DNA from: Gemmatimonadota bacterium
GTDB lineage: Bacteria; Gemmatimonadota; Gemmatimonadetes; Gemmatimonadales; GWC2-71-9
Length of the DNA: 64,000 nucleotides
Assembly (NCBI GenBank): GCA_039588295.1
Contig: JBDHAB010000019.1
Location: forward strand, 1-64,000
Direction: 5' to 3'
A program made the translations under genes and the position numbers. Of the stretch, positions 13,086 through 39,113 are shown piece by piece. The first letter of the stretch is position 1. Every line of letters starts with the position of its first letter. The notes beneath the pieces are model-generated. The model was not told where the DNA came from. It was given only the letters and a program-made list of their open reading frames with translations, and made no database searches.

Positions 13086-13559
13086 TTACGGACAGTTCTC
13101 GGGCCGCCTCCGCCGCTCGACGAACTGGACCTGCTTGTCACTGCGCGACACGCGAACCACTTCGACCGGGTACACGGCGATATCGAACTGCTCGCACGCT
13201 TCGGTGACACTCACATAGGCGAGGAGCACGTCACTGCGCACTCCCACGCTGTCGACATGAATCTGGTCCCCTGACCGCATCTGGCCGGCCGCCACCACGA
13301 GGACCATCTCCTGGTCGAAGTCGACCGGGGGCCGGCCCGGCGGGTTGGGCTGTGCCGAGGTTACACGCTCCCAGATCGCCTGCCACGACAACTCGTCGGT
13401 TACCGCGAGATGCATCGTGTCCTGGACACCGCCCGCGTCATCTTTGTAGAGGAGCGCCATAGATGGAAGTGGCGGCAGAGGCTCGGGCATCCCCCCGCCC
13501 TGGCAGGCGATGACTGGGAGGGCAGCTGCCGCAAGGAGCATCATGGTTGAGGATCGCAT
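13086..13559 (-). CDS. Lipoprotein with PrcB C-terminal-like domain
   Basis: Lipobox VIAC; PPVDFDQEMVLVVAAGQMRSG and YPVEVVRVSRSDKQVQF resemble PrcB_C; co-oriented 69 bp downstream of tssM. Confidence 0.7.
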   Translation of the reverse strand: MRSSTMMLLAAAALPVIACQGGGMPEPLPPLPSMALLYKDDAGGVQDTMHLAVTDELSWQAIWERVTSAQPNPPGRPPVDFDQEMVLVVAAGQMRSGDQIHVDSVGVRSDVLLAYVSVTEACEQFDIAVYPVEVVRVSRSDKQVQFVERRRRPENCP

Positions 13560-13628
13560 GTCACACCTGTGGCTTCTCTGGTTTCGATTTGCGGACGCCG
13601 GCATGGCTGCGTGGCAACGGGGCGTCCC

Positions 13629-16600
13629 TCACCGCACGATCTGGGAAACGCATGTCAAACCGGACATATAACCTGGGTTGAGAATCGGGTCTCCAACCGG
13701 CGTGATCTGTCCTTCCACGACGTAGCGACTTCCCGTCTGGGGCTCGAGGCTCCAAATCACCCGATAGCGCTGGCCCAGTTGCTCCCATTGCGCTTCCTGG
13801 AACAGGCGGAAGAGCGCCCACGGGCCGCTGAAGCGAAGGAGGTCCACGTTTTGGCCGCCCACCGTGACCCTCAGCAAGACGTCTCGCGCGCGCTCGCCGA
13901 CCCACTGAAAGTTTACACTCGTCCGGACGGTTTGTGTGAACGTCGCCGGGCGCCCATCCAGGGCAACAGTGACCGCGGACGCTCCGGCTGGCGGCGACAG
14001 TTGCAGGGCGAAGCCAAGCCGAGGCCCGGCTCCTTGATCGTCGAATAGCGTTTCGGACACGGCGGCGGCGCGCCGGAAGAATTGGACGAAGCGCGACTCG
14101 GGCTGCACGGCGGCACTGGGGTCTCGGCCCCAGCGTCCGGCTCGTCGTACCATCGCATTCCCGAGCTCATCGCTGTTGAGCCGCATCAACAGGCCGTCCT
14201 GTGGATGGAAGATGTCCGCAACTTCCGCTATCGTGGCCTCGTCGCGTCCGCTGGGGCTGAAAGGATACTTCGCGATGAGCCGACTGAAATCGCGACAAAA
14301 CGCACTCCCACTCGCATTGACCCGGTTCCGCGGCCCAGCTCTGATCGCTCCCTCGAGCATCCGCTCGACTCGCACGATTGGATTCTCGATGAGCCGTCGC
14401 ACGTCCCCGCTGACTTCTGCCGCCTCTTCGCTCCCGCTGAAGGTGCTCACGAGCTGGCTTGCGACCTCGCGTGCCCTGCGCGCTTGGCTGAGCGCCTCCT
14501 CGCGCGCAGCGGCATCCTCCCGATCCCGCGCCGCGCGCTCGAGCGCCCTACCCAGTTCGCCAAGTTGGCTGGTGTACTCGCGGTTCTGATCCACGATGAG
14601 TTGGTCGCCGATGGGCGGAGGCGTGACGGCGTGCACGGGCTGGAATCCCCGTGCGAAGGTCGAGTCCAAGGTGGTGTCGGTGTTGGCTGCCGCGTCAGCG
14701 AGCATCCGCAGCAGTGGTGATCGATTCCCACCCAGCGCAGCGATACTGCGAGCGGCACCGCTGACACCGCCGGAGACCCGCACTTGTGCGGACCGGAGAA
14801 ACGTGCGCCACTGCTGCGCGTATTCGCCTTCGTAGCGCGCTCGCAGCGTTCCGACCAGACTCGCCATGTTTTGTTGGCCGAGCGACTCGCATCCGATTGT
14901 CTCGAAGACCCAGCGTTCGCCGCCAGGTGACAAGTCGCCGCTATCGAACTCCGCGTGTATGGCCGTCCATCCGTCGGCAGTGAACGCCGCAGGTATCACG
15001 TGGGGATTCACCACCCACTCGTCATCGAACCGAATTGCTGAGCTGGCGGCCGCCCCGCGTGTGAGGAGCGACTGGTACACACTTTCCTCGTCGCTCAGGC
15101 CGGCCAACGCTCTGCACGCGGCGCCCGAGAGGTTCGGGTCGTGCGGGACGGCACAGAGATCGGTCGTGCAGAGCCCTCCACCGTAGAACAGAAGCTGGCT
15201 GCCGGCGCGCTCTCGATCGGCGTCCCCGAGCCGCCGAGTGTCTGGCCAGTATCCGAGTAACGCGGCAGCAGTGTCCTCGGTCAGGCGGTCGGGACGAGAG
15301 GTGGTGACCAGGTGGTTGGCCAACAGCCGATGCACACGGGCGAAGGTCGAGCGTTCGGGATTGGCCGTCACGGCGCGGAGCTCAGTGAGCAGCGAGTCGC
15401 GGATCCCCCCGAGCATGGCGTCCTGGAAAGCCCGCCAATAGACGCTTCGAGCGGGCCGTGCGAGGGACGTCCCCGTGTACAACCCCCACCGGAGCCGCAG
15501 CGGGGGACCTCCCCGCTGGTATCGTGTGAGCCGGTCGAGTTCGAGTCGCAGGTCCTCGAGTCCGGCGAGCGCCGTGGAAACCGACTCGGACGGTCCCAAC
15601 GCGTTGACCGCCCGTGCTGCTCGGCCTACCCGGGCTTCGAGCCGCCGGTTGGCGATGAAGGAGACTGTGAAGCCGAGGGTCAGCAACACCGCCACGGCTG
15701 CGAGCGTCGCGAACGCGACGCGTCGTAGCTGCTTGAGCCGGTACCCCGATTGCGTTACGCCGAGCGCAACTTTGTCGCGCAGGATGACCCGATGGAACAG
15801 GTCTGAGAGGAAGAGCCACTGCGGCACGCGCCTCGTTCCCGCGGCCGCAGGAGGTGCCTGTGGTGGTGGGGCTCGGTGCTCATCTGGGCGCAGCACCTGG
15901 GTAGCGCCAACCTGTCGCACGTCGGGGGTCACCGGCGCGGGGCGAACGGCTGCTTCCACCAGCACGGCGCGCACCCCTGCAAAGTAGAAGCCTCGCAGGA
16001 ACGGGCTCAGTTCCAGCTGCCGTGGCTTGCACAGCTCGACCAGGAACTGGGTCGCCAGCGGGGTGATCTTCCGCAATTCTCGAGGAAACTCGTAGGCCAG
16101 CGCTCGCTGTGCCACGTCGGTGTCGCGCGGCAACATGCGTAAGCGCTGCTGAGCAAGTGACTGGAGCAGCTCCTCGAACGCATCACTCACACGCCGGTAT
16201 TCCCGATCTGCGTACGAGCCCGCCGTGCTCGGGGGTGGGGTGCGCAACGTGGCACCGAGCACTTGGCGTGTCTCCTCATCCGCCAGGTTTCGCACGAATT
16301 CGGAGAAGCAGCGGAGGCGGTCGGCTTTGGTGAACACCACGTAGACCGGCAACCGGATGCCGAGCGACCGTGAGACCTCCATCAAGCGCTCGCGGAGTGC
16401 GCGGGCGGAAGCGGCGACGACCTCGGCGGCGTCACTTCGTGCCAGGTCCTCGCAGCTGTAACACACCACGGCGACGCGCGGTGCTTGGGGCCGCCCCGCG
16501 AGCACGGCAGCCAGGCGGGGCGCTCGGATATGATGAATCAGCCGCGACCAGCGGGACGGCTCGCCGAGGAGCGTTCCCCCGGCCTCGACCATGATGGTCT

Positions 16601-17048
16601 GGCGGACGTACCAGACATTCGCCGCCGGCGTGGGTGCCACAGCGTCTCCCCGGAACACCTCGCCTGCGAGCAGATCCGGCTCGAGCCCCGAACGAAGCAG
16701 CGTCGTCGTCTTCGCGCTGCCCTCCGGCCCCACGAGAAGGATCACAGGGAAGGCGCGGAGTTTCTTGGTGCCCTCCAGGCGCGCAGCGGCCAGGCGCTTC
16801 CGGGCATGCGAAAACGACGTGTCGATCTCGTCCCGCACCGGGCGCCCCCGGCGCCTCCTCTTGAGCAGGAACCAGACGATCAGCACCACAGCGATCCCGC
16901 CGAGCAACCACAGTCCTCCGCGCAGGATCCACAGGTCAGCGCCGCGCAGCCGCAGGAGGCTGCCCAGGAACCAGGCCACGATGGCGAACCCGCCGAACGC
17001 GGCGGTCCCGGTCAGCATGATCCTCGGTGTGCGGCGGATCATTCTCAC
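13629..17048 (-). CDS. tssM: T6SS membrane complex protein TssM/IcmF
   Basis: N-terminal TMs, Walker A-like GPEGSAKTT, LPVYVVFTKADRL, FLRGFYFAG, WGLYTG, C-terminal FSGPWALFRLF; 1139 aa. Confidence 0.95.
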   Translation of the reverse strand: MRMIRRTPRIMLTGTAAFGGFAIVAWFLGSLLRLRGADLWILRGGLWLLGGIAVVLIVWFLLKRRRRGRPVRDEIDTSFSHARKRLAAARLEGTKKLRAFPVILLVGPEGSAKTTTLLRSGLEPDLLAGEVFRGDAVAPTPAANVWYVRQTIMVEAGGTLLGEPSRWSRLIHHIRAPRLAAVLAGRPQAPRVAVVCYSCEDLARSDAAEVVAASARALRERLMEVSRSLGIRLPVYVVFTKADRLRCFSEFVRNLADEETRQVLGATLRTPPPSTAGSYADREYRRVSDAFEELLQSLAQQRLRMLPRDTDVAQRALAYEFPRELRKITPLATQFLVELCKPRQLELSPFLRGFYFAGVRAVLVEAAVRPAPVTPDVRQVGATQVLRPDEHRAPPPQAPPAAAGTRRVPQWLFLSDLFHRVILRDKVALGVTQSGYRLKQLRRVAFATLAAVAVLLTLGFTVSFIANRRLEARVGRAARAVNALGPSESVSTALAGLEDLRLELDRLTRYQRGGPPLRLRWGLYTGTSLARPARSVYWRAFQDAMLGGIRDSLLTELRAVTANPERSTFARVHRLLANHLVTTSRPDRLTEDTAAALLGYWPDTRRLGDADRERAGSQLLFYGGGLCTTDLCAVPHDPNLSGAACRALAGLSDEESVYQSLLTRGAAASSAIRFDDEWVVNPHVIPAAFTADGWTAIHAEFDSGDLSPGGERWVFETIGCESLGQQNMASLVGTLRARYEGEYAQQWRTFLRSAQVRVSGGVSGAARSIAALGGNRSPLLRMLADAAANTDTTLDSTFARGFQPVHAVTPPPIGDQLIVDQNREYTSQLGELGRALERAARDREDAAAREEALSQARRAREVASQLVSTFSGSEEAAEVSGDVRRLIENPIVRVERMLEGAIRAGPRNRVNASGSAFCRDFSRLIAKYPFSPSGRDEATIAEVADIFHPQDGLLMRLNSDELGNAMVRRAGRWGRDPSAAVQPESRFVQFFRRAAAVSETLFDDQGAGPRLGFALQLSPPAGASAVTVALDGRPATFTQTVRTSVNFQWVGERARDVLLRVTVGGQNVDLLRFSGPWALFRLFQEAQWEQLGQRYRVIWSLEPQTGSRYVVEGQITPVGDPILNPGYMSGLTCVSQIVR

Positions 17049-17058
17049 TCACCCTCGC

Positions 17059-17745
17059 TCAGCGCACGAGATTGTTGAGGCTCCCAATCGCTGAGCCCAA
17101 CGTCAGCTTGAAGATGACGAACAGCAAGACGGCAAGGCCGAAGAGGCCTGCTGCTAAGTACTGAAGGCGCGGGAGCCACAGGTCTTTCGACGCCACAGCT
17201 TGCTCCGCACGCGGAAGGCCTTCATTCGGTGAGAGATGAGCCGGCGCCCTGCGAACGCGTTGGATCTTGTCGGCCACGGCTGACAGGAGGGCATGGATCT
17301 CGCCGCCTCCGCCGGCGCTGTACCGTCCGCGGAATCCGAGCAACAGACAGAGCTGGTAGACCTCGAGCACGTCTGCTACATCCTCGGAATCCTGCTGAGC
17401 GAGGAGCTCTCGAAGGTTCTCGAAGAACGTCCGCCCACCCATGTGGTCGCCGAAGATTTCCTCTTGCAGCGGCATGCGGGGCCAGTCCGCAAACGCTGGC
17501 TGAGCGGAGTTCAGGACGGACTCGTCCAAGAAGGCGATGAACGCATAGATCGCGAGTCGCACGTCGTTCCCGGCATACCCGAGCTGTCGGCCCTCGCGAT
17601 CCGCCATCCCCAGCAGCTGCTTGATTCGCGCACGAAACGCGGTGGCGTCCGTCGTGACGTCACGACCGGAGCGCAGCCGTGCCGCGGCCGTGAACACTTC
17701 CTGCAACCGCAGCGCGAGCTGTCCTCGTCGGCCTTCCACGGTCAT
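17059..17745 (-). CDS. tssL: T6SS protein TssL/DotU (no OmpA extension)
   Basis: AFLDESVL, PLQEEIFGDHMGG, DVLEVYQLCLLLGFRGRY, C-terminal TM. Confidence 0.95.
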   Translation of the reverse strand: MTVEGRRGQLALRLQEVFTAAARLRSGRDVTTDATAFRARIKQLLGMADREGRQLGYAGNDVRLAIYAFIAFLDESVLNSAQPAFADWPRMPLQEEIFGDHMGGRTFFENLRELLAQQDSEDVADVLEVYQLCLLLGFRGRYSAGGGGEIHALLSAVADKIQRVRRAPAHLSPNEGLPRAEQAVASKDLWLPRLQYLAAGLFGLAVLLFVIFKLTLGSAIGSLNNLVR

Positions 17746-17835: not shown

Positions 17836-19191
17836 CTAGGACAAGACCACATCAATGTGGATCTCCTCCACGCGAACCGTGTCGGGAACGTAGACCCCGA
17901 CATCTCGGCCTTGCGTGATCGCCTGCCAGCAGGGGCCGTCCTGCTTGATGGCGAAGTACTGCCATCCGATCCTCGGGGCCACGGCCGCCGGTGGCGCCGG
18001 CAGGTGCTCGAGCTCCAGGGCCGGCAGTCCCTCCTTCACGAGCCGCACAATGTGGGCCCCCGAACACACCTTCACGAGCCGCGGAACCCCAGAGATGATC
18101 TGTGCGGCCTTCCCTTGTGCCGATACGCCGAGCACCCAACGCGATGGTCCGAGACAACGTGCATCCGCGACCTTGCCGGCGAAGAGAAACTCCCTCGTGC
18201 GCTCCAGGGAGATCTTGAGGCAATTCGTCGCGATGACGATGTCGAGGCTTGCGGTGATCTGTCGATCGAGCTCGGCGAAACACTGGCCAAGATTATCGTG
18301 GTCGTACAGCGGTAACTCTCGCGGATGGCCCTCGAGCGAAAACGTGTAGAGCGCGCCCGCGAGCCTGGCGAGATCCGCATACACCTGCTCGGGGCTGGAG
18401 CGGCCGGAGGCGAGATGGTGTCGCAAGGGCCCCAGGGCGGAATGGATGGTGTGAGCCAGCCAGAAACGCGCGACCTCGTGAGCGGCGAAATCCGCAAGCG
18501 GCTGCTGCTCCTCCCGGCGCTGGTGTGCCAGCGCCTCGCTCTTCGCGTCGAGCATGTCGACGACCCGTCCGAGCACCTCCAAGAGTCGTCGGCTTGCCCC
18601 CACTTGGAGGCAGGGGGAAATGAACTCCGGTTCGTACTCGAAGTGGCCGGTGCCATCGCGCCGAATCCGCGCGATCGGAAGTGAGACGGCATCGTCGGGA
18701 ATCTCGGAGCCAACGAGCAGGCGGAAGTTCTTGCGACCGAACTGGACCGGATTCTCCTCCCCGCTACCCAGCTCGTCGCTAACGGGTTGCGTCTCGGCAA
18801 CGTACCGGGCCTGGCCGTCAGTCACCGCCGCATCGAGCTCACAGTTCCGGCCGCCGGGGCGGTATGGTGGGATGACGAGCGCCACCGGCAGGCTGTGATC
18901 AGTGGGCGAGAAGAGTTCGCGGATGTCGCGGGAAGCGGGGAGCGGGTCACAATCGGGGAAGTGGAACGTGAGCCCGTCGGGCATGACCCCCCGGGCATGT
19001 ACCAGCGCGACCGTCCCGTTGCGCACGGCATCGGCATCGAGTTCGCAGCCAACGAAGCCATAGGGTCTGAAGAACAAGTGTTGGACCGCGAACGCCATCG
19101 AGTCCTCGAAGTAGCGACTCAGCGTTTGGAAGTGGTGCTGAGCGAGGTGCATCCCCTCGCTCCACACCAGGCGCGAGAGCAGCTTCGTCAT
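17836..19191 (-). CDS. tssK: T6SS baseplate subunit TssK (copy 1)
   Basis: VWSEGMHLAQHHFQ, GVMPDG, YDHDNLGQCF, LPALELEHLPAPPAAV. Confidence 0.93.
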   Translation of the reverse strand: MTKLLSRLVWSEGMHLAQHHFQTLSRYFEDSMAFAVQHLFFRPYGFVGCELDADAVRNGTVALVHARGVMPDGLTFHFPDCDPLPASRDIRELFSPTDHSLPVALVIPPYRPGGRNCELDAAVTDGQARYVAETQPVSDELGSGEENPVQFGRKNFRLLVGSEIPDDAVSLPIARIRRDGTGHFEYEPEFISPCLQVGASRRLLEVLGRVVDMLDAKSEALAHQRREEQQPLADFAAHEVARFWLAHTIHSALGPLRHHLASGRSSPEQVYADLARLAGALYTFSLEGHPRELPLYDHDNLGQCFAELDRQITASLDIVIATNCLKISLERTREFLFAGKVADARCLGPSRWVLGVSAQGKAAQIISGVPRLVKVCSGAHIVRLVKEGLPALELEHLPAPPAAVAPRIGWQYFAIKQDGPCWQAITQGRDVGVYVPDTVRVEEIHIDVVLS

Positions 19192-19331
19192 CGGCGCTGA
19201 CCTGAAGCTATCAATGCCATTCGATGTCTACGTCCTGGCTCGATCGTCTGAGGGCTGCGCACCAGCGTCGTCCCGTGGCTCATTGTGGGCTGCCTGACAG
19301 TAACCAGCCACCGTGCGTGCGGTCGAACGGA

Positions 19332-19352
19332 CCGTATCATATTATGTTACGG
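19332..19352. promoter_or_regulatory. AT-rich near-perfect palindrome in a divergent intergenic region; candidate operator
   Basis: CCGTATCATA-T-TATGTTACGG, 9/10 arm match, containing a -10-like TATTAT. Confidence 0.4.
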
Positions 19353-19454
19353 CTAGGCGCAGCCAGCAACCTGCCTGTGCGAAAGGAGGGTGAGCGCGAT
19401 GGCCAGGCACGCGGTTCCCGCCGACTCTACACTCGGTCCAGCACCGTGCAATCC

Positions 19455-21005
19455 GTGACGGGTCGCGAGTTTCACTCGAAGTATCAACTCGTCGAGGTGG
19501 TATCGGCGGGGCCCGTGAAGACGTACCGTGCGCGCGACGAGGCGGGTCGTGACGTGATGGCACATTTTCTCGGGCCGGCGGAGTCCGCTGGGCTCACTCG
19601 CCTGGCGCAAACAAGGCGGCTCCCCCCCTCTGTGCAGTCAATAGTACTCGAGTCGCTAACCGTCGATGGTCAGGTCGTGCTCGTCACGGAGGTCCTTCCG
19701 GAGTTCACCGAGTTCGACCGATGGCTTGGGCAGACCGTGGGACAGCACCCTCCAGCCTCGTTCGGACCGGACGACGCGACGCTCGTGAGCGACCAGCCCG
19801 GTGAGTTCACCAAGCTGTTTCAACCCCCGACGGCTGGTGGGAAGCCGGAGAGTGATGCGAGCGCTCCCACTGAGCCGGAGCCGACACCCGGAGTCGGTCC
19901 GGACGGCGCCCGCACGCCGGACGCTCCGGCCGCCAGTGGAGCCGGCGAGTTCACAAACCTGTTCGGTCCGATGCGCGCCCCATCCGAGGAAGCGGCCCAA
20001 GCCCCTGAGGCTGACGACGCCACTCGCAAACAGGCCGGACCTCGGCCCCCGGGGGAGAAGCTCGGCCAGTTTCAGCGGATCTCGCGCGTCGAGAAAGGCA
20101 GTACACCGCCGTCCCCGCGACGCCCCGACCAAGAGGCGCGAGGTGAGGGGGGCGGGGGACCGCCCCCGCGACGCCCCGACCAAGAGGCGCGAGGTGAGGG
20201 GGGCGGGGGACCGCGAATCGTCTGGAAGGAGTCGAAACCCGAGGAGGTTGAGCCGCCGCGGAAACCGCGCGTGCGCTGGAAGCCACCGGGTGGGGCCGAG
20301 GGAGTGGACGAGGCAGATCGACCACCGCCTCCGCCGCCACCGGCGCAGCGGCGGGAGGAGGCACCGAGTCCGCCTACTCCGCCGGTTGCTCCGCCGCAGC
20401 AGGGTCGGGGCGAGTTCACCGAGCTGTTCGGCCCGCCGGCGGGTGCCGGTGAGGCCAGTGTCGATTCTCAGCCCCCTCAGCCGCCGCCCGCACCGGCGCG
20501 CCCCTCGAACGGCTACCTGGAGGCGCTGGGCCGTCTCGACACTCCTTCTGTTCCGGAGCCGGAAGGCGTAGCACCGCCCGGCCCGATCGACGAGCCGCTC
20601 CCACTCGGCGAACCGGCGAAGCCTGCTCCTCCGTTCGGTGCCAGTGGGCGGGGCACCTCGTTCACCGAGATCGTGTCTGGCAGGCCCCAGGGTGGCCTGG
20701 CGGGTCAGACGCCCGGATCCGAGCCGCCGCGGGGTGCGGTGCCGCCGCCCAGTGCGCCGCCGCCCAGTGCGGTGCCGCCGCCCGGTGCCCCTCCGCCCAG
20801 TGCTGTGCCGCCGCCCCCCCATGCTGCCCCAGTCCCGGGCGCGTTCCCGGCGCCGCCCGGCGCGGCACCGGCACCAGCGCCGGCGCCGCTCGGCGCGGCA
20901 CAAGAGCCCGGCCCGTCTCAGGGGCCACCCTGGGCACTCGTGATTTCGTTGGCGGTGATCGGCCTGCTGGCCGTGGTGTTGATTCTGGTCTTCGCGCTGA
21001 AATAG
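19455..21005 (+). CDS. Pro-rich T6SS-associated membrane protein with degenerate kinase-like N-terminus and repeated GEFTxLF motifs
   Basis: KYQLVEVVSAGPVKTYRARDEAGRDVMAH; GEFTKLF, GEFTNLF, GEFTELF, TSFTEIV; C-terminal TM. Start codon uncertain (GTG 19455 chosen). Confidence 0.75.
   Translation: MTGREFHSKYQLVEVVSAGPVKTYRARDEAGRDVMAHFLGPAESAGLTRLAQTRRLPPSVQSIVLESLTVDGQVVLVTEVLPEFTEFDRWLGQTVGQHPPASFGPDDATLVSDQPGEFTKLFQPPTAGGKPESDASAPTEPEPTPGVGPDGARTPDAPAASGAGEFTNLFGPMRAPSEEAAQAPEADDATRKQAGPRPPGEKLGQFQRISRVEKGSTPPSPRRPDQEARGEGGGGPPPRRPDQEARGEGGGGPRIVWKESKPEEVEPPRKPRVRWKPPGGAEGVDEADRPPPPPPPAQRREEAPSPPTPPVAPPQQGRGEFTELFGPPAGAGEASVDSQPPQPPPAPARPSNGYLEALGRLDTPSVPEPEGVAPPGPIDEPLPLGEPAKPAPPFGASGRGTSFTEIVSGRPQGGLAGQTPGSEPPRGAVPPPSAPPPSAVPPPGAPPPSAVPPPPHAAPVPGAFPAPPGAAPAPAPAPLGAAQEPGPSQGPPWALVISLAVIGLLAVVLILVFALK
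20113..20214 (+). repeat. Perfect 51-bp tandem duplication, in frame (17 aa unit containing PRRPDQEARGEGGGGP)
   Basis: 20113-20163 is identical to 20164-20214. Confidence 0.95.
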
Positions 21006-21028
21006 GCTGGCGCGAAGAGCGGCCGCGC

Positions 21029-22384
21029 CTACTGCTCGTCCTTCGGGAGCACAATCAGGAGCTCCAACTGCGGGTCCGTGAGCTCCGCCGGGACGTACGC
21101 AGCCAGATTGCGCGCGAGCGTGATGCCGCGCCACTCCGACCCCGTCTTCTCCAGGGCGAAGTACTGATAGTCGAGCTTCACCGGCAAGGCGCTGGGCGGC
21201 TGTGGCACATGTGTCAGGACCACGCCGGGCAGAGCCTGCTTGATGAGATGCTGCACGCGGTCGGCCGCGCTCACCTTGACCAGTTGCGGGATCTTCTTGA
21301 GCGTGTCCACCGGGGCCGTGGAACTCACTGCGAGGTACAGTGCCGGAGCCCTCAGATACCGCTCGTCATCGAGAGCGGTCGCATACAGGGATTTCTCCAC
21401 CGAGCGCATGGGCAGGGAGACGTGGTACGCAGGGACAACGGTCTCCAGCAACTCACGAAGCTGCTCATCCAGGGCCGAGAAACATGCGGCGAGGTCCGAG
21501 TGATTGTAGGTCGGTAGGTCGCGCGGGTGCACACGCTGTGAAAACGTGGTCAACGCGCTGGCCAGGGACATCATGGCGGCATAGAGTTCCGCGGGGTGGC
21601 CGCGTCGGCTCTCCAACAGATGCCGCAGGTGGGGCACGTAGGTGTTGACCGTATAGAGCAGCCAGAAGTTGGCGACGTCCGTCACGCCAAACTGCGCCAG
21701 GCTCTGATTCTTCTGCCGCCGGGTGGCCGAAATCGTTGTGCTCTTGGCGGACAGCAGCTCGACCAACCGTCTGGTCAGCATCACGAGGTACTCGCTCGAG
21801 GAGAAGTCGATCAGGGGCGGCACAAAGTGCGCTTCGAGTTCGAAGCCCCCGGTTGCTATCCGGCGGAGCCGCGCTACGGGGAGCGCAGAGTTCCCCTCCA
21901 ACGACTCGCCTTCCACGAGCAGACGAAAGTTCTTTCGCGCGACTTGAATAGCCTTCTCGGCGAGCCCGCTGTTCTCGTCACGACGCATGAGAACGTCTGC
22001 CGAGTACCGTGTACTCCGATCGGTATGCGTTGACGAGACGTTTAATCCGCCGCGGCGGAACTCGGGAATGGCGAGGAAGACATCGAGCGTCTCTTGGTCC
22101 TGGTCCCAGCAGTCGTCCACTGGCCGCGGGCTGGGCGCCGTGTCCGCCTCAGGAATGTCGAAGAGCAGGCCATCCGGGAAGATGCCCGCCGCCGAGGTGA
22201 CCGAGCATACGCCTCCCGCCAGAGCTTCGTGATCCAGGGTGAGGCGGGCAAAGCCCCACGGGCAGAACGTCAGCGCGGAGAGTTGGAAATGGATCAGGTC
22301 CTCGAAGAATCGATCCTGCGCCTGCAAGTGCTGGGGCGTAAGAAGGACGCCTTTGGTCCACATGACCGGCTGGAGCTGCTGCAT
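21029..22384 (-). CDS. tssK: T6SS baseplate subunit TssK (copy 2)
   Basis: VMWTKGVLLTPQHLQAQD, GIFPDG, YNHSDLAACF, ALPGVVLTHVPQPPSALP. Confidence 0.93.
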   Translation of the reverse strand: MQQLQPVMWTKGVLLTPQHLQAQDRFFEDLIHFQLSALTFCPWGFARLTLDHEALAGGVCSVTSAAGIFPDGLLFDIPEADTAPSPRPVDDCWDQDQETLDVFLAIPEFRRGGLNVSSTHTDRSTRYSADVLMRRDENSGLAEKAIQVARKNFRLLVEGESLEGNSALPVARLRRIATGGFELEAHFVPPLIDFSSSEYLVMLTRRLVELLSAKSTTISATRRQKNQSLAQFGVTDVANFWLLYTVNTYVPHLRHLLESRRGHPAELYAAMMSLASALTTFSQRVHPRDLPTYNHSDLAACFSALDEQLRELLETVVPAYHVSLPMRSVEKSLYATALDDERYLRAPALYLAVSSTAPVDTLKKIPQLVKVSAADRVQHLIKQALPGVVLTHVPQPPSALPVKLDYQYFALEKTGSEWRGITLARNLAAYVPAELTDPQLELLIVLPKDEQ

Positions 22385-22489
22385 GGTTCGGTAACCTAGT
22401 GCCGCATCATCCACTGTCCAGGCCTGCCGGGCGCGGAGGCGTTTCGGGTCTGGCGCTCCGCTGGTTTAGGCGGCAGTTTACTCTATGGT

Positions 22490-27420: not shown

Positions 27421-27425
27421 GCCCC

Positions 27426-31561: not shown

Positions 31562-32556
31562 CGCGGTCGGACATCACGACCCGGCTCACCGAGGCGCCGA
31601 CATCGTTCGGCTTCTTCCAGGTCGTGCGCCTCCTGGAGCGCCTGTTTCCCGAACGAAAACGGGTTGGGGAATCGGGCGATCCTTCCGAAGAGGTCGTGCG
31701 TCTCACCGTCAATCCGGCTATCGGCTTTCCGCCGAGCGCGGTCCGGGTAATCGAGTTGTTGACCGAGCCGCCCGAGATGGCCGTCAACTTCATGGGATTG
31801 GTCGGTCCGCTCGGGGTATTGCCGTACCATTACAGCCTCTTGGTTGCCGACCGAGCGCGGCTCGGCGATCGGTCGATGAAGGCCTTCCTCGACCTGTTTC
31901 ATCACCGCATCATCTCGCTCTTCTACCTCGCGTGGGAACGACACCGGTTCATGGTCGCGTACGAGCGAGATCGACGCGATCGCGTGACCGAACATCTGCT
32001 CGACTTCATTGGGCTCGGGCTGCAAGGCTTCCAGAACCGGCTCCCCGTGGTGGACGAGTCGTTGGTGTTCTATGCCGGGCTGCTGGGTCCGCAGCAGCGA
32101 TCGGCAGAAGCGCTGCAACGTATGCTCGAAGACTACTTCGGGATTCCGGTGGAGGTCGAGCAGTTCATCGGGGGTTGGTATCCGCTGCCGGCCGCAACCC
32201 ACTGTACGCTCGGTGAGGAAACGGGCAGCTTCACGCAGCTCGGGCGGGGCGCGGTGGTGGGGGACGCCGTGTGGGATCAGCAGGCTCGCGTTCGGATCAA
32301 GCTGGGACCGCTCACGAGAGCCCAGTACGAGGAGTTTCTTCCCGAGAGAGAGGCGTATCTGGCCCTGCGAGCCTTGACGAGATTCTTCAGCGATGACCGC
32401 TTTGACTTCGAGGTGCAACTGATCCTGGCCCGCGGCGACGTGCCCGGCTGCACACTCGAGATGGACGACGGCGCCGGCCTGCGGCTTGGCTGGTTCACCT
32501 GGATCAGCTCGAAGCCGTTTGCGCATGACCCGGACGATACGATCCTCAGCCTCTAG
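31525..32556 (+). CDS. tssG: T6SS baseplate subunit TssG
   Basis: FGFFQVVRLLE, FMGLVGPLGVLP, FLDLFHHR, GPLTRAQYEEFLP. Confidence 0.96.
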   Translation: MAAESGTESATVARSDITTRLTEAPTSFGFFQVVRLLERLFPERKRVGESGDPSEEVVRLTVNPAIGFPPSAVRVIELLTEPPEMAVNFMGLVGPLGVLPYHYSLLVADRARLGDRSMKAFLDLFHHRIISLFYLAWERHRFMVAYERDRRDRVTEHLLDFIGLGLQGFQNRLPVVDESLVFYAGLLGPQQRSAEALQRMLEDYFGIPVEVEQFIGGWYPLPAATHCTLGEETGSFTQLGRGAVVGDAVWDQQARVRIKLGPLTRAQYEEFLPEREAYLALRALTRFFSDDRFDFEVQLILARGDVPGCTLEMDDGAGLRLGWFTWISSKPFAHDPDDTILSL

Positions 32557-32571
32557 CGCGAGGGAGCCGCT

Positions 32572-35268
32572 ATGAATGTCGATCTGCGATCTCTGATTGG
32601 AAGACTCAACCATGAGGCGCGAAATGCGATCGAAGCCGCGGCGGGTCTGTGCCTCTCGCGCACGCATTACGACGTCGAAATCGAGCACTACTTGATGAAG
32701 GTGTTGGACGCAAGCGACGGGGACGTGGCGTTCATTCTCAAGCACTTCGGGGTGGACCGCTCGCGGCTGGCGAAGGACGTCACGCAGACCCTGGACCGGT
32801 TCAAGACGGGCAATGCCCGAACGCCATCGCTGAGTCCCAGTCTCGTCAAGATGCTGTCGGAGGCCTGGCTCCTGGCGTCGGTGGAACATGGGGCGTCGCA
32901 ACTCCGCACCGGTCACACCATGCTCGCGCTGGCAGTGAGCGAGGAGCTTCGGCGGCTGGTGCTGGAGACCAGCCGGGAGTTCCAGAAGCTCTCGGGCGAA
33001 GCACTGCGCCAGGACTTCGCGACGATCGTGGGGGAGTCCGTGGAGGAGACGGCGGCAGCCGCGGCACCGGTCGAAGGAGCGCCCCGCCCCGGGGGCAAGA
33101 CGCCCAATCTCGATCAGTTCACCGTCAACCTCACGCAACGGGCCAGGGACGGACACCTGGATGTGGTGCTCGGTCGGGACTTCGAGATACGGCAAGTGGT
33201 GGACATCCTGACTCGGCGACGCCAAAACAATCCGATCTTGGTGGGTGAAGCCGGGGTAGGGAAGACGGCTGTCGTCGAGGGGTTCGCCATGCGGATCGGG
33301 CAGGGGGATGTGCCGCCCGTGCTGAAGAACGTCACGATCCACACACTCGATCTCGCGCTCCTCCAAGCCGGGGCAGGGGTGAAGGGCGAGTTCGAGAATC
33401 GCATCAAGAGCCTTATCGAAGAGGTGCGCTCATCGGAGACGCCCATCATCCTGTTCATCGACGAGGCGCACACGATGATCGGTGCCGGGGGGGCCGCCGG
33501 TCAGGGGGACGCAGCCAACCTGCTCAAGCCGGCGCTCGCCCGCGGTGAGCTCCGAACGATCGCGGCAACGACCTGGTCGGAATACAAGAAGTATTTCGAA
33601 AAAGATCCGGCGTTGGCCCGGCGGTTCCAGTTGGTCAAGGTCGACGAGCCGACGGAGCCGTCCTGCGCCTTGATGATGCGCGGCGTCGCCCCGAGTCTGG
33701 AGAAGCACCATGGGGTGCGGATCCTCGACGACGCAATCGACGCCGCCGTGCGGCTGTCACATCGGTATCTGCCCGATCGACAGCTTCCCGATAAGGCCGT
33801 ATCCGTGCTCGACACCACGTGCGCCCGACTCGCACTTGGGCAGAGTGCGACGCCGGCAGCCATTGAGGACGCGAGGCGTACGCTCGACGACTTGGCGGTC
33901 CAGACCCGAGTGCTCGAGCGGGAGCAGGCAGTGGGCACGGACCATTCGGAGCGGTTGACCAGCCTCGCCGAGCAACGAGCAGAAACGGAGGCGAGACTGA
34001 CGTCCCTCACCGGACAGTGGGAGCAGGAGCGCGAGCTGGTGAAGCGGGTTCGGGAGTTGCGCGGGCAGCTCGAAGCGAGTGTCGCCGAGGAAGCGAAGCC
34101 GGCCAAGAAGAAGAGCGCCAAGAAGGATCTCGCTGCTCTCCGCGACGAGTTGGCAGGACTCACGGCGGAGCTCGACGCATTGCAGGGAGAAGCAGCCCTG
34201 GTGCCCGTAACGGTCGATTCCGACTTGGTGGGACAGGTCATTTCCGGATGGACGGGGATTCCGGTCGGCAAAATGCTGCGAGACGAAGTGGCGACCGTTC
34301 TCCGCCTCGAGGAGCACCTCGGACAACGCATCATCGGGCAGTCGCACGCGCTGGAAGGGATCAGCCAGCGCATTCGCACCTCGCGTGCGGGGAGCGAGGA
34401 TCCGAACAAGCCCGTTGGGGTCTTTATGCTCGTCGGCCCCAGCGGGGTCGGCAAGACCGAGACGGCCCTGGTACTCTCGGACTTGCTGTACGGCGGTGAC
34501 CGCAACCTCATTTCGATCAACATGTCGGAGTTCCAGGAGGCACATACCGTCTCGACGCTCAAGGGGTCGCCTCCCGGGTATGTCGGATACGGTGAAGGTG
34601 GTGTCCTGACGGAGGCGGTGCGGCGGCGGCCGTATTCCGTGGTGTTGTTGGATGAGGTCGAGAAGGCTCACCCAGACGTGCTCGAGCTGTTCTTCCAGGT
34701 CTTTGACAAGGGGGTCATGGAGGACGGCGAGGGTCGGCAGATCGACTTCAAGAACACGATCATCATGTTGACGACCAACGCGGGGACTGAGACGATCATG
34801 ACGCTGACGGCAGATCCGGAGACGATGCCGGATGCCGCCGGGCTCGCCAAGGCCCTGAAACCCGAGCTGAACAAGACCTTCAAGCCGGCGTTCCTTGGCA
34901 GGCTCGTGATTATCCCGTACTTCCCGATCCGTGATGATGCGATGAAGCACATTATCCGGCTCAAGCTCGGCAAGATCGAGCGGCGGCTCGCGGAGACGCA
35001 TCGAGTCACTCTGAAGTACGACGACACCATGATCGACGAAATTGCGGGGCGGTGTACGGAGGTTGAGAGTGGGGCGCGAAATGTCGACAACATCCTCACG
35101 AATACGATGTTGCCCGAGGTTTCTCGGCACTTGCTCGAATCTCTCGCGGAGGGAGCCAAGCTGGACATCATTCGAGTCAGCGTCGGTGACGGCGGCGCGT
35201 TTCAGTACTCGATGGAGTCAGCGGCAGGTGGGAGCAGCCGGGCTGCAGCGACGGGTGCACTCGCCTGA
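32572..35268 (+). CDS. tssH: T6SS AAA+ ATPase ClpV/TssH
   Basis: Two NBDs (GEAGVGKT, GPSGVGKT); ClpV-type GSPPGYVGYGEGGVLTEAVRRRPY and RRRQNNPIL. Confidence 0.97.
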   Translation: MNVDLRSLIGRLNHEARNAIEAAAGLCLSRTHYDVEIEHYLMKVLDASDGDVAFILKHFGVDRSRLAKDVTQTLDRFKTGNARTPSLSPSLVKMLSEAWLLASVEHGASQLRTGHTMLALAVSEELRRLVLETSREFQKLSGEALRQDFATIVGESVEETAAAAAPVEGAPRPGGKTPNLDQFTVNLTQRARDGHLDVVLGRDFEIRQVVDILTRRRQNNPILVGEAGVGKTAVVEGFAMRIGQGDVPPVLKNVTIHTLDLALLQAGAGVKGEFENRIKSLIEEVRSSETPIILFIDEAHTMIGAGGAAGQGDAANLLKPALARGELRTIAATTWSEYKKYFEKDPALARRFQLVKVDEPTEPSCALMMRGVAPSLEKHHGVRILDDAIDAAVRLSHRYLPDRQLPDKAVSVLDTTCARLALGQSATPAAIEDARRTLDDLAVQTRVLEREQAVGTDHSERLTSLAEQRAETEARLTSLTGQWEQERELVKRVRELRGQLEASVAEEAKPAKKKSAKKDLAALRDELAGLTAELDALQGEAALVPVTVDSDLVGQVISGWTGIPVGKMLRDEVATVLRLEEHLGQRIIGQSHALEGISQRIRTSRAGSEDPNKPVGVFMLVGPSGVGKTETALVLSDLLYGGDRNLISINMSEFQEAHTVSTLKGSPPGYVGYGEGGVLTEAVRRRPYSVVLLDEVEKAHPDVLELFFQVFDKGVMEDGEGRQIDFKNTIIMLTTNAGTETIMTLTADPETMPDAAGLAKALKPELNKTFKPAFLGRLVIIPYFPIRDDAMKHIIRLKLGKIERRLAETHRVTLKYDDTMIDEIAGRCTEVESGARNVDNILTNTMLPEVSRHLLESLAEGAKLDIIRVSVGDGGAFQYSMESAAGGSSRAAATGALA

Positions 35269-35307
35269 CCGACGCATCACCACATTTGGCAAGGAACGAG
35301 GCAGCGT

Positions 35308-37281
35308 ATGCCGGAGTACTCTCAGGCCAATCGCCCCATCCGAGTCGAGACCGCGCTAGGCGAAGACGTGCTGCTGTTGGAGGCATTCTCCGGTGAGGAG
35401 CGTGTCTCCGCGCCGTATGCGTTCACGCTCGAGCTGGTGTCGCAGGATGCCGCCATAGAGCCGGTGAAGGTACTGCGGTCTCCGGCAGCAGTCATGATTG
35501 ACTTACCCAACGGGGAGAAACGTGCCATCCACGGGTTGATCAGTCGGTTCGTGCAGCTGGGACAGACTGGAGGCGCGGACCTGACTGCGTATCGTGCGGA
35601 GTTGGTTCCGTGGCTCTGGTTTCTCTCTCTGTCGTCCGACTGCAAGGTCTTCCAGAACATGACCGTTCTCGAGATCGTGGAGCAGGTGTTCAAGGACCTG
35701 GGTTACTCCGATTTCGAGATCAAGTGCGTGAAGAGCCACCCCAAGCGAGAGTTCTGTGTCCAGTATCGGGAAACGCATCTGAACTTCGTGTCTCGGCTGT
35801 TAGAGGAAGAGGGCATCTTCTACTTCTTCAACCACACGAGCTCCAAGCATGTGTTGACCCTGGCCGACGACGTCAGCGCCGTCAAACCGTGTCCCGGCCA
35901 GGCGGCCGCGCGGATGGCGGTGAAGTCGGGTGGGTGGCAGGAGGAGGACGTCGTCACGGCGGTCGAGCGGGAACATGCAGCGTATATCGGGAAGGTCACC
36001 CTCCGCGAATTCGACTATCTGCAACCGTCACTTCGATTGGAAAGCTCGGTGTCTGGCGACGGGCACGGGGAGATCTACGACTACACGTTTCCGGGGAACT
36101 TCAAGTCGCCAGACACCGGTGATCAATTGGCACGCCTGCAACTCGAGGAACAGGAGCAGTGGCATGAGGTCGTGCGAGGTGACGGCACGTGCCGCTCATT
36201 TCAGAGCGGCTGCCGCTTCGACCTCAAGGAGCACTACCGAGGTGAGGTGAATCAAGCGTACCAGTTGCTGCGAGTCCACCATGCGGCTCGAACGGGGGGC
36301 TACCGCTCCCGGACCGAAGACGAGTTCGACTATCGCAACGGCTTCGTCGCAATTCCGCACACCGTGCCATTTCGCCCACCGCGCATCACGCCGAAGCCGG
36401 TGGTCCAGGGCTCGCAGACGGCGCTGGTGGTGGGGAAGGCGGGCGAGGAGATCTGGGTGGACAAGCATGGCCGGGTGAAGGTGCAGTTCCACTGGGATCG
36501 GGACGGCAAGAAGGACGAGAACAGCTCGTGCTGGGTCCGCGTGTCGAGCACCTGGGCTGGCAAGGGGTGGGGCTTCGTGCAGATACCGCGTATCGGGCAG
36601 GAGGTGATCGTCGATTTCCTCGAAGGTGACCCGGACATGCCCATCATCACCGGCCGAGTCTACAATGCCGAACAGGTGCCGCCGTATGCCCTGCCGGCGA
36701 ATCAGACCCAGAGCGGGGCCAAGTCACGCAGCTCTAAAGGCGGTGGCACGGACAACTTCAATGAGCTCCGGTTCGAGGACAAGAAGGGAAGTGAGGAAGT
36801 CTACCTGCAGGCCGAAAAGGACCTCACAGCCAAGGTCAAGAATGACGCGTCGGCGCAGATCGGCAACGACCGCACGGTCGTCATCCAGAACAACGACACC
36901 TTGACCGTGGAGAAGGGAGACCAGGCCGTCGACATCAAGATGGGCGACCAGACGATCACCTTGGGCCAAGGGAATCAGAACATCGTCATCAAGATGGGCG
37001 ATCAGAATACCCAGGTTGACATGGGGAACATGAGCACCAAAGTGTCAATGGGTAACATCTCCACCAAGGCCGATCTCGGTGCGGTGGCCGTAGAGGGGAT
37101 GCAGGGAATCGAGTTCAAAGTTGGGGGGAGCAGCGTGAAGATCGATCAGATGGGAGTGACCATGAAAGGCATGATGGTCAAGATAGAAGGCCAGGTTCAG
37201 ACCGACGTCAAGGGTCTGATGACCAACATCAACGGCGACGCCATGCTGAAGGTCAAGGGTGGCATAACCATGATCAACTAG
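35308..37281 (+). CDS. vgrG: T6SS spike VgrG/TssI, no C-terminal effector extension
   Basis: CVQYRETHLNFVSRLLEEEGI, GRVKVQFHWDR, SSCWVRV, PRIGQEVIVDFLEGDPD, NELRFEDKKGSEE. Confidence 0.97.
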   Translation: MPEYSQANRPIRVETALGEDVLLLEAFSGEERVSAPYAFTLELVSQDAAIEPVKVLRSPAAVMIDLPNGEKRAIHGLISRFVQLGQTGGADLTAYRAELVPWLWFLSLSSDCKVFQNMTVLEIVEQVFKDLGYSDFEIKCVKSHPKREFCVQYRETHLNFVSRLLEEEGIFYFFNHTSSKHVLTLADDVSAVKPCPGQAAARMAVKSGGWQEEDVVTAVEREHAAYIGKVTLREFDYLQPSLRLESSVSGDGHGEIYDYTFPGNFKSPDTGDQLARLQLEEQEQWHEVVRGDGTCRSFQSGCRFDLKEHYRGEVNQAYQLLRVHHAARTGGYRSRTEDEFDYRNGFVAIPHTVPFRPPRITPKPVVQGSQTALVVGKAGEEIWVDKHGRVKVQFHWDRDGKKDENSSCWVRVSSTWAGKGWGFVQIPRIGQEVIVDFLEGDPDMPIITGRVYNAEQVPPYALPANQTQSGAKSRSSKGGGTDNFNELRFEDKKGSEEVYLQAEKDLTAKVKNDASAQIGNDRTVVIQNNDTLTVEKGDQAVDIKMGDQTITLGQGNQNIVIKMGDQNTQVDMGNMSTKVSMGNISTKADLGAVAVEGMQGIEFKVGGSSVKIDQMGVTMKGMMVKIEGQVQTDVKGLMTNINGDAMLKVKGGITMIN

Positions 37282-37283
37282 CG

Positions 37284-37886
37284 ATGAGCGATACACCGCC
37301 AATGCTCCGTTCGGGACGGACGGTCGCGGAAATCTGTGGGGCTTCGGAGTTGAGCGACGAGGCCTTGACGCTGCTCGCGGACCGTCAGGTACCCAAGGAG
37401 TATGTCGAGCTCTTGATGGAGCAGGAGCTCTATCCCGACGCGGTTCGGTTTCTGGCGCATGCGCTGCCCAAGCGGGAGGCCGTGTGGTGGGCGTGGGTGT
37501 GTGCGCGGCGGGCCGCGGGCGAAGAGCCGCCGGATGATATTCAGGCGGTGCTCGAGGCAACCAGGCAGTGGATTGCCGAGCCGACGGACGGGCATCGGCG
37601 TGCCGCCATGGAACTGGCCGAGCAAGTCGGGTTCGACAAACCGGCCGGGTCTGCCGCGCTCGCAGCGTTCTTCAGCGGAGAGTCCCTTGCCCCCGCTGAT
37701 GTCGAGCAGCCCGTGCCACCCGGAGAATACATGGCGGCCAAAGCCATCACAGGGTGCATTCTGTTGGCGACCGTTGGCACGGAGCCGGAAAGAGCGGGGG
37801 AGAAGTTCCAGGACTTCGTGCAGCAGGGGATGGAGGTGGCGGAGAAGATCGAACTGTGGAAGCCGCCGGAGGAGTCACGCGGATGA
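37284..37886 (+). CDS. Helical VgrG/PAAR-associated protein (DUF6931-like)
   Basis: AVRFLAHALPKREAVWWAWVC and WIAEPTDGHRRAA; starts 2 bp after the vgrG stop. Confidence 0.7.
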   Translation: MSDTPPMLRSGRTVAEICGASELSDEALTLLADRQVPKEYVELLMEQELYPDAVRFLAHALPKREAVWWAWVCARRAAGEEPPDDIQAVLEATRQWIAEPTDGHRRAAMELAEQVGFDKPAGSAALAAFFSGESLAPADVEQPVPPGEYMAAKAITGCILLATVGTEPERAGEKFQDFVQQGMEVAEKIELWKPPEESRG

Positions 37887-37918
37887 TTCGCTCTCGGACA
37901 CAGACGAGGTAGACGGCA

Positions 37919-38215
37919 ATGGGATTCCCAGCCGCTAGAGTGGCCGATATGCACGTGTGTCCCATGGTGACCCCGCCAGCCATTCCGCACGTCGGAGGAC
38001 CCATCCTCCCACCCGGGTGCGTGCTAGTGCTGATCGGCGGAATGCCGGCGGCGCGGCTGGGGGACATGGCCACGTGCGTCGGCCCGCCGGATGTGATCGT
38101 CAAGGGTTCGCCGACCGTGCTGATCGGTGGCATGCCCGCGGCCCGAATGCTGGACATGACGGTGCATGGCGGGACAATCGTCTCTGGGTTCCCGATGGTG
38201 TTGATCGGGCCGTGA
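37919..38215 (+). CDS. PAAR domain spike-tip protein
   Basis: Three PAAR motifs with H/C ligands (PAARVADMHVC, PAARLGDMATC, PAARMLDMTVHGG). Confidence 0.96.
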   Translation: MGFPAARVADMHVCPMVTPPAIPHVGGPILPPGCVLVLIGGMPAARLGDMATCVGPPDVIVKGSPTVLIGGMPAARMLDMTVHGGTIVSGFPMVLIGP

Positions 38216-38291
38216 CCTCCCTACGCCAGGGACCCTCCAATCGGCCCTCACCGTTTCGCCGGAGATAGCAGTCGGCCAAGTAGAGCTGAAT

Positions 38292-39113
38292 ATGTCCCTG
38301 CCAAGCACGATTCGAGACGTGGGTCGCGGTGTAGTTGGATTGACGCGTAGACCCAAGACGACACCCGGGGGTCTTGGCATGTGTGATGAGTTTGCCGGCT
38401 CTCGCAAAGGTACTCTCGTTGCGCAGGCCGCATCTCCGTTAGGGATTCGAGTCCTCGCGGAGTTTGACAAAGAGAATGGTGTCATCTGGGCAAACGAAGC
38501 CCTGCTGCAAGCAATGGCAAGGGCACGCAGTACTGGAACAAAACTGAGCGAGGCCAACGTCGCAACGCTCACCCATGAATTTGCTCATGTGTTGGACTAT
38601 GAGGATATCTTCGAAAAATTCAAAGACAGAGGGAGAATTACTGCCGAGTTAGCGGAAATCGCTTCTGCGTTACGAACCCGGCTGGCCGAAAAGGTGAACA
38701 ACACGACGGAAGTCCAGTTTATGCAACACTATCTCGCCAAGGAGAGGTCCGCGGAAGAGTATGCGAAGAAGATTACTGCAGAGCTCAGAGGGTATCATGG
38801 CAGCCTACGAGCATTCTGGGTGAGCCAAGCCCTGGATACATGGGCTCATAACACCAAAACAACGTATGAAGAGGATGCCCGCGGTACCTATAGGAGAATA
38901 AAAAGGCAACTTAAGGAACTCGGTAACTCTCCGTCGAAAGTGGCAGCCGAAGCGGAGAAGAAGAAGAAGTACAGACAAAAATTGCTGCCCGTTTATACAA
39001 TCGTCGATATCTTCCCTGGAAGAGAGGAGTCTCTCACGTTACACAACCTGTTGGAGATGATAAGCGAATACCATGTGGTGATAGTAGTATCGGTGCCTAT
39101 TGAATCGAGGTAG
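38292..39113 (+). CDS. Low-GC protein with HEXXH motif; candidate T6SS zinc-metallopeptidase effector
   Basis: LTHEFAHVLDY (HEFAH at 38574-38588), downstream ERSAEEYA; follows PAAR; AT-rich. Confidence 0.6.
   Translation: MSLPSTIRDVGRGVVGLTRRPKTTPGGLGMCDEFAGSRKGTLVAQAASPLGIRVLAEFDKENGVIWANEALLQAMARARSTGTKLSEANVATLTHEFAHVLDYEDIFEKFKDRGRITAELAEIASALRTRLAEKVNNTTEVQFMQHYLAKERSAEEYAKKITAELRGYHGSLRAFWVSQALDTWAHNTKTTYEEDARGTYRRIKRQLKELGNSPSKVAAEAEKKKKYRQKLLPVYTIVDIFPGREESLTLHNLLEMISEYHVVIVVSVPIESR

Follow-up and report, generated by a model that had tools for sequence, protein, structure and literature searches.

How a type VI secretion system (T6SS) is fastened to the outer membrane when the lipoprotein TssJ is missing is the question raised by a locus of a Gemmatimonadota bacterium, analysed here in a window of 64,000 nucleotides (the whole stretch of DNA studied; contig JBDHAB010000019.1 of assembly GCA_039588295.1). 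TssJ is absent in 27.5% of 1096 non-Acinetobacter T6SS genomes (PMC10564176), TssJ-less systems are functional in Agrobacterium (PMC3702570) and Acinetobacter (PMC10564176), and their outer-membrane attachment is stated as an open question (PMC10564176, PMC12949010). For the present locus we consider it reasonably probable, mainly on the basis of a predicted complex, that a small PrcB_C-like lipoprotein encoded directly behind tssM binds the C-terminal beta-domain of TssM and tethers TssM to the outer membrane in place of TssJ.

Thirty selected open reading frames (ORFs) of the window, compared with Pfam and NCBIfam, yielded tssM, tssL, two tssK genes, a TssB-TssC fusion gene, tssB, tssC, hcp, tagJ and tssA on opposing strands, together with tssE, tssF, tssG, clpV, vgrG and the genes of a DUF6931 and a PAAR protein, the inventory spanning 13629 to 38215 (Table 1). 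The parts that define a T6SS-i, namely TssA, B, C, Hcp, E, F, G, ClpV, VgrG, K, L, M and PAAR, are all encoded, and the first-pass annotation of the window, which had recognized twelve core genes plus tagJ and PAAR in opposing transcription units, two tssK genes and a fused sheath gene, was correct on these points, as it was in finding TssL devoid of an OmpA extension. By tblastn, hcp, vgrG and PAAR gave one match each in the whole genome. TssM passed three Pfam cut-offs but, with a score of 365, stayed below the 388 required by TIGR03348. A scan for promoters and terminators gave a result at chance level. In the whole genome (4.5 Mb, 96.3% complete) the TssJ family PF12790 produced no match at E≤10, and the best score with the TssJ model TIGR03352 (cut-off 31.6) was 10.5 bits for a fragment with internal stops; the loss of TssJ proposed from the window thus extends to the genome. 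TagF gave no match either, with a query that also matched none of the control genomes. PF12790 was likewise not found in 65 of the 67 related T6SS-bearing genomes, and the two positive ones, both of which carry a different, unrelated tssJ-K-L-M system, serve as a positive control for the TssJ search. In three loci of the phylum (L028, L030 and L031) the T6SS is of another kind, with only one TssK (23% identical), and two of these three also have tssJ.

The distribution of the gene plan was followed with a TssL profile, which retrieved 549 confirmed loci (ca. 720 estimated), 80 of them titled (51 Gemmatimonadota, 26 Acidobacteriota, 3 other), and in a phylum sample of 301 genomes, 33 of them DotU-positive, from which 31 loci were taken after subtraction of the present genome (G000) and one sub-cut-off match. 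Gemmatimonadota and Acidobacteriota share an arrangement in which tssK1 is followed by a divergent Pro-rich gene and then by tssK2, tssL and tssM. The system is a TssJ-less, lineage-wide T6SS-i variant with a plan common to both phyla, and is filed as such and not under the canonical TssJLM type. In a TssC tree of 22 Gemmatimonadota/Acidobacteriota rows and nine named proteobacterial sequences (two i4b, seven other), a quick tree with sparse references, the Gemmatimonadota and Acidobacteriota proteins form a clade (98 SH-aLRT) apart from the sampled proteobacterial TssC. The two checks named beforehand, a search for tssJ elsewhere in the genome and the placement of TssC, therefore revealed neither a tssJ gene nor a nesting of TssC among these few references. 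The claim of a lineage-specific variant holds insofar as the system is TssJ-less throughout the lineage and has its own TssC clade, but the plan spans two phyla and TssJ loss is not unique to it. The probable assignment of the host to Gemmatimonadota is supported, as the window's nearest titled neighbours in a TssK-TssL-TssM tree are Gemmatimonadales and other Gemmatimonadota. A literature search by title found, among the matches listed, surveys and reviews only and no study of this Gemmatimonadota/Acidobacteriota system, most subscription papers lying outside the search.

The ORF next to tssM, overlooked in the first-pass annotation, encodes a lipoprotein whose signal peptide ends in the lipobox VIAC with Cys19 and a glutamine at position +2, followed by a linker of ca. 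25 residues and a domain with a conserved Cys122/Cys156 pair. The lipobox cysteine is found in 144 of the 150 aligned family members, aspartate at +2 in none of these 144, and the median linker length is 25 residues; Tyr38 and Asp40 are at least 90% conserved in the 150 rows, and the first strand carries a YxD[DN] motif. LolA is encoded in the genome. The residue at +2 governs lipoprotein sorting by the Lol machinery in E. coli, and under this borrowed rule the protein, probably acylated at its lipobox cysteine, would be directed to the outer membrane. As to its family, Atlas grouped the lipoprotein with PrcB_C clusters (0.93–0.94), and hhalign related it to a PrcB_C protein above the Pfam cut-off (L114) with a probability of 99.4% (E 1.3e-21, 141 columns). 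PF14343 (PrcB_C) itself gave no match to the window lipoprotein and only weak matches to four of the 150 members (best E 0.026); because the gathering cut-off is missed while homology to members above it is evident, we use the label PrcB_C-like.

One might regard this protein as a very remote TssJ homolog and the locus as a rearranged canonical T6SS, since the two proteins resemble each other in their small size, lipoprotein nature, richness in beta-strands and helical insert, and since both contact the TssM beta-domain (PMC3213119; for the present protein by prediction). This reading appears hardly credible to us. Profile comparison with Ralstonia TssJ gave a probability of 0.8%, with the lipobox alone aligned, as opposed to the 99.4% for the PrcB_C protein; neither PF12790 nor TIGR03352 matches the window lipoprotein or any of the 150 family members; and the gene position is unlike that in tssJ-tssK. 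On the sequence level there is no detectable kinship to TssJ. The AlphaFold model of the lipoprotein has a pLDDT of 94.6. Fold searches with it, in which a transthyretin-like fold as in the TssJ family was of interest, retrieved neither TssJ nor another clear match (no Foldseek match at E≤0.001, best VIA Z-score of 2.8 among 48,161 chains), and sequence comparison with the PDB gave one chance match. These null results do not establish a new fold, as the modelled structure may belong to an unlisted family. Literature joining PrcB, lipoprotein and type VI secretion was not found in a search outside of which most subscription papers lay.

The proposed role of the lipoprotein is founded on a modelled pair of TssM 860–1139 and lipoprotein 28–157. 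The complex scored 0.78, compared to 0.00 for the best of three controls, and thereby passes a mark that 116 of 157 solved complexes but only 2 of 215 mismatched pairs attain; this mark is roughly applicable when own alignments are used. The runs agreed in at least 98% of the contacts, with a partner pLDDT of at least 89. The predicted interface is built up by residues 1012–1018, 1039–1046, 1093–1096 and 1112–1118 of TssM and by residues 36–42, 70–75, 96–99 and 121–131 of the lipoprotein. That the model merely reproduces a known structure of such a pair is less likely, since neither sequence nor fold searches turned up a solved protein resembling the lipoprotein. We consider binding of the lipoprotein to TssM likely. 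The TssM surface concerned lies within and just past the IcmF_C match, i.e. in the beta-domain, and TssJ likewise binds TssM via the C-terminal beta-domain (PMC10564176, PMC3213119, PMC4374921).

Comparison with the canonical TssJ-TssL-TssM complex of the enteroaggregative E. coli Sci1 system (PDB 4Y7O, 6HS7, 6IXH) shows a homologous C-terminal region of TssM (E ~1e-21), with an aligned loop of equal length (19 residues, Asp to Trp) and, by prediction, a lipoprotein partner on the same beta-domain. In contrast to Sci1, tssJ is missing, the gene of the PrcB_C-like partner follows tssM instead of preceding tssK, and the TssM tail is ca. 20 residues shorter. The TssM contact loop aligns with residues 1005–1012 of E. 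coli TssM. In Durand 2015 TssJ is reported to touch this very loop; a list of the TssJ contact residues on TssM was not found in the literature searched. In its 19–20 residue [TS]x[TSV] form the contact loop is present in 39 of the 39 TssM with an accompanying lipoprotein and in 1 of the 47 others. A separate feature of TssM is an invariant cysteine near the C-terminus and a near-invariant one at ca. 918 (86 rows), likely forming a disulfide that ties the tail to the helical domain.

The lipoprotein gene and tssM are closely linked. The count set aside duplicates, loci in which tssM was incomplete, four loci with under 600 nt of downstream sequence and three belonging to other T6SS types. Of the 59 Gemmatimonadota loci that remained, 36 have the lipoprotein gene directly behind tssM, as opposed to none of 23 Acidobacteriota loci; the gap from the tssM stop is 14–71 nt (13 measured loci). 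In a FastTree analysis of TssK-TssL-TssM (87 rows) the lipoprotein-bearing systems form one well-supported, deep-branching clade which includes Gemmatimonadales- and Longimicrobiales-titled records and contains the lipoprotein in 39 of 39 rows. The lipoprotein profile found some match in 65 of the 301 phylum genomes but at least 180 bits in only 15, all DotU-positive (14 of these 15 built the profile); the maximum in the 268 DotU-negative genomes was 132 bits (G023), followed by 87. In one genome (G234) the match is divided between two contigs. Among five open or discordant genomes, L049 and L077, whose loci with an FTRT loop are cut short, hold copies of 205 and 206 bits at the starts of other contigs, and L038, L047 and L079 have no lipoprotein match.

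Several points speak against an anchoring function. Neither TssJ nor the lipoprotein is present in 23 of the 59 Gemmatimonadota and in all 23 Acidobacteriota loci, and an unlinked lipoprotein copy was not found in the 29 searched genomes of such systems (completeness not given); these sister systems imply that the clade can apparently run without either protein and that the lipoprotein may be an add-on. Since all lipoprotein-bearing systems belong to one clade, co-occurrence and loop signature amount to a single event, i.e. one independent pair, and the co-variation of loop and lipoprotein was therefore rejected as independent evidence; moreover, the loop motif was defined after the data were seen. 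The modelling controls were unrelated proteins and comprised neither a generic PrcB_C paralog nor a TssM from a lipoprotein-less system. The 132-bit copy of G023 (L112:9618-10094, G023:C9) lies at a contig end in a genome without a DotU match and is intermediate between the T6SS-linked and the generic forms. Residue-level identity of the predicted site with the TssJ site is a candidate only, and binding, localisation and need of the lipoprotein are predictions throughout.

The lipoprotein could accordingly be a late accessory on TssM, serving in stabilization, positioning or sensing, with an older TssJ-independent anchoring in the whole clade. This explanation gains from the 46 of 82 scored loci without both proteins, from the lack of an unlinked copy in 29 of their genomes and from the TssJ-less systems working in Agrobacterium (PMC3702570) and Acinetobacter (PMC10564176). 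We nevertheless regard it as rather unlikely, because no loss is seen among the 39 of 39 clade members across long branches and because the features of the lipoprotein and its predicted site fit the role of TssJ.

A different function is suggested by the genes further downstream. Many relatives have genes for a kinase, a protein phosphatase 2C (PP2C) and an FHA-trypsin protein, in this order, behind tssM and the lipoprotein gene. In the present genome ten FHA matches were found, none of them on the T6SS contig, and a PP2C query matched other contigs only, in accordance with the reported absence of FHA and PppA from the locus. The best matches of the relatives' T6SS-linked regulators form one unit on contig C8, away from the T6SS, a relationship missed in the first-pass annotation. 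The kinase encoded in the window at 4729-7317 was rejected as the main T6SS kinase, as most T6SS-linked kinases of Gemmatimonadota relatives match C8:42040-43000 best (among the matches listed). A Ser/Thr kinase-PP2C-FHA module thus exists but is unlinked here, and the regulatory layer, for which a different nature had been proposed, is probably a less exotic, modified version of a known one. Kinase, PP2C and FHA genes recall the PpkA-PppA-Fha pathway, from which the module deviates by its FHA proteins, of FHA-coiled-coil-trypsin and zinc-ribbon-FHA-FHA architecture and not TagH, and by its substrate, likely the GEFTxxF protein described below. PrcB is a protease partner in the dentilisin complex of Treponema. 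By analogy the lipoprotein might be a protease partner within the kinase-PP2C-FHA/trypsin module, placed behind tssM by inherited gene order, in line with the order found in many relatives, the PrcB_C-like family assignment and the occurrence of generic members in genomes without T6SS. This we consider improbable: the lipoprotein stays with tssM although the module is located on C8, loci such as L001, L013, L017, L019, L046, L063 and L088 have the lipoprotein but no kinase match behind it, and the modelled TssM-lipoprotein complex passes its controls.

In the favoured scenario, in which the lipoprotein acts as the anchor, intact reading frames exist for the tail and baseplate parts as well as for TssL and TssM, no tssJ being found, and the lipoprotein, recognizable by signal peptide, lipobox cysteine, linker and cysteine pair, would be acylated and exported by Lol. 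Its first strand (YxD[DN]) is predicted to pair with TssM loop 1039–1046 and the neighbouring sheet, which would fix the TssM pillars at the outer membrane in a TssJ-like manner. A membrane complex different from the canonical one, as supposed earlier, is likely.

Less firmly, the scenario can be extended to the baseplate and its regulation. TssK1 and TssK2 are 36% identical, and each forms a clade of 26 in the tree; both clades span Gemmatimonadota and Acidobacteriota, so the duplication is old. In each baseplate wedge a pair of TssG loops carries two trimers of TssK (PMC6300606), which renders a division of labour plausible; the paralogs may split the two trimer sites per wedge or form mixed trimers. 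Of 78 non-duplicate loci, 70 have a GEFTxxF-type gene, defined by at least two G[ED]FTxxF-type motifs, that is oriented away from tssK2; in the present genome it is the sole ORF with at least two G[ED]FTxx[FI] motifs. The encoded Pro-rich, C-terminally anchored protein, similar at its start to kinase N-lobe-like clusters, likely serves in the membrane as a scaffold that is phosphorylated on threonine and read by the kinase-PP2C-FHA module. Taken together, a PrcB_C-like lipoprotein may have been recruited once in an ancient TssJ-less lineage as an essential, non-homologous replacement of TssJ at the same TssM site and, with a specialised TssK pair and the GEFTxxF scaffold, constitute an undescribed membrane-baseplate architecture. 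We advance this fuller proposal tentatively, as a real possibility that falls a little short of probable.

The sheath fusion is a genuine gene, as first noted, but not a fixed trait of the system. It is present in 12 of 50 loci and was therefore rejected as a core part; the family (11 rows) forms one clade with TssB to ca. 133 and TssC to 370 (350 in one). Agrobacterium and Rhizobium likewise possess an extra divergent sheath-like gene (TssC40, ImpD), essential in Agrobacterium (PMC3702570). ImpD-type proteins are without a TssB part and retain the C-terminal domain, whereas the optional fusion combines TssB with TssC to residue 370 only, and ImpD orthology was rejected because of this opposite domain loss. 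With a pLDDT of 37, the single-sequence model of the fusion could not be used, and its role is deduced from domain coverage alone: devoid of the gp25-like domain, it may be an optional cap or decoy rather than a sheath subunit. In 12 of 50 loci, a gene for an MTS-type methyltransferase of ca. 505 residues (L008:14049-15569 and 26 similar ORFs in both phyla) either adjoins the GEFTxxF gene or separates tssB from tssK1; it is nearly exclusive with the fusion (both in 1 of 50 loci) and gave no match in the present genome.

Among known systems, the Acinetobacter complex (TsmK, TslA, TagX and TssM GS-linker) is likewise TssJ-less and compensated by lineage-specific envelope proteins (PMC10564176, PMC12949010). 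Its factors are located in the inner membrane or periplasm, whereas the candidate here is a lipoprotein, and a GxxGxxxGxxG (GS) linker of the Acinetobacter type was not seen by eye in the alignment of the TssM C-terminal domain. The best proteobacterial matches of TssK and TssC come from T6SS-i4b (Ralstonia, Paraburkholderia), with which the locus also shares the divergent layout of tssK-L versus tssB-C-hcp-E-F-G-clpV; one Gemmatimonadetes and one Acidobacteria plasmid T6SS were placed on a branch of i4b (PMC9113992). The i4b loci examined differ in carrying tssJ-tssK-tssL with one tssK (L127 also tagF and a gene for an OmpA protein), and TssC falls here into its own clade, in a quick tree with two i4b references and based on TssC rather than TssB. 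Plasmid pACIX901 of Granulicella tundricola (NC_015057.1) displays the same order, in which a hypothetical gene of divergent orientation separates two tssK genes and tssJ is missing from the annotation, but a PP2C gene after tssM, no lipoprotein gene annotated there and no fusion gene; no experimental study of this T6SS was found in the literature.

On the right flank, DUF6931 and PAAR are paired after vgrG in 9 of 15 relatives. The HEXXH motif of the last ORF and its position in a post-PAAR slot that varies between relatives make it a likely cargo; in L143, from a relative, the slot (10007-10681) is occupied by a second HEXXH protein, for which BLAST showed no relationship to the candidate effector. 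To the left of the locus, genes passed over in the first-pass annotation recur beside the T6SS of some relatives. Positions 1427-11921 hold an envelope cluster encoding barrel-like proteins of 302 and 449 residues, a TPR-CsgG lipoprotein, a CsgG-like protein, a zinc-ribbon Ser/Thr kinase with Big_2 domains and a beta-rich repeat protein of 1126 residues; its homologs adjoin the T6SS in L010, L043, L069, L081 and L148, and paralogs occur on contigs C6, C10 and C21 of this genome.

Table 1. Coordinates of the T6SS locus and associated features (positions in the window unless another contig is given).
Feature	Position	Strand	Basis or remark
Zinc-ribbon, Pro-rich, C-terminally anchored protein with degenerate kinase-like segments	11776..13011	+	Adjoins the lipoprotein in two relatives (L021, L027)
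PrcB_C-like lipoprotein, 157 aa, candidate TssJ stand-in; leftmost gene of the locus	13086..13559	-	Alternative upstream ATG possible at 13604
Lipoprotein residues 36-42 (LLYKDDA), first strand, main predicted TssM contact	13434..13454	-	Complex model
tssM (IcmF), 1139 aa; stop shortly beyond C-terminal beta-domain	13629..17048	-	Pfam/NCBIfam
TssM residues 1039-1046, C-terminal beta-domain loop, predicted lipoprotein pairing	13911..13934	-	Complex model
tssL (DotU), 228 aa, short form, DotU domain only, without OmpA domain	17059..17745	-	Pfam/NCBIfam
tssK2, in tssK-tssL-tssM-lipoprotein unit	17836..19191	-	Pfam/NCBIfam, tree
Pro-rich GEFTxxF protein: kinase N-lobe-like start, three GEFTxxF motifs, C-terminal membrane anchor	19224..21005	+	Start 19224 or 19455
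tssK1, second paralog; likely start 22384	21029..22414	-	Pfam/NCBIfam, tree
TssB-TssC fusion, 509 aa, without TssC C-terminal gp25-like domain; optional accessory	22490..24019	+	Pfam, tree
tssB	24080..24625	+	Pfam/NCBIfam
tssC; likely start 24618	24588..26102	+	Pfam/NCBIfam, tree
hcp	26167..26658	+	Pfam
tagJ (ImpE)	26704..27420	+	Pfam
tssA, long form, ImpA_N and VasJ domains; likely start 27426	27291..29279	+	Pfam/NCBIfam
tssE	29110..29730	+	Pfam/NCBIfam
tssF	29723..31561	+	Pfam/NCBIfam
tssG	31525..32556	+	Pfam/NCBIfam
clpV (tssH)	32572..35268	+	NCBIfam
vgrG	35308..37281	+	Pfam/NCBIfam
DUF6931 protein, likely spike adaptor	37284..37886	+	Pfam
PAAR	37919..38215	+	Pfam/NCBIfam
Candidate cargo effector, HEXXH motif	38292..39113	+	Peptidase_M43 match weak, below cut-off
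Unit of zinc-ribbon FHA-FHA gene, Ser/Thr kinase, PP2C and FHA-coiled-coil-trypsin	L120:6881-11907 (G000:C8, ~38900-43900)		

The lipoprotein offers a concrete anchor candidate with an interface predicted at residue level, and the sister clades without TssJ and lipoprotein provide a natural comparison. If the proposal is true, a core part of the T6SS would have been replaced convergently, and TssM would be the first binding partner for this PrcB_C-like subfamily.

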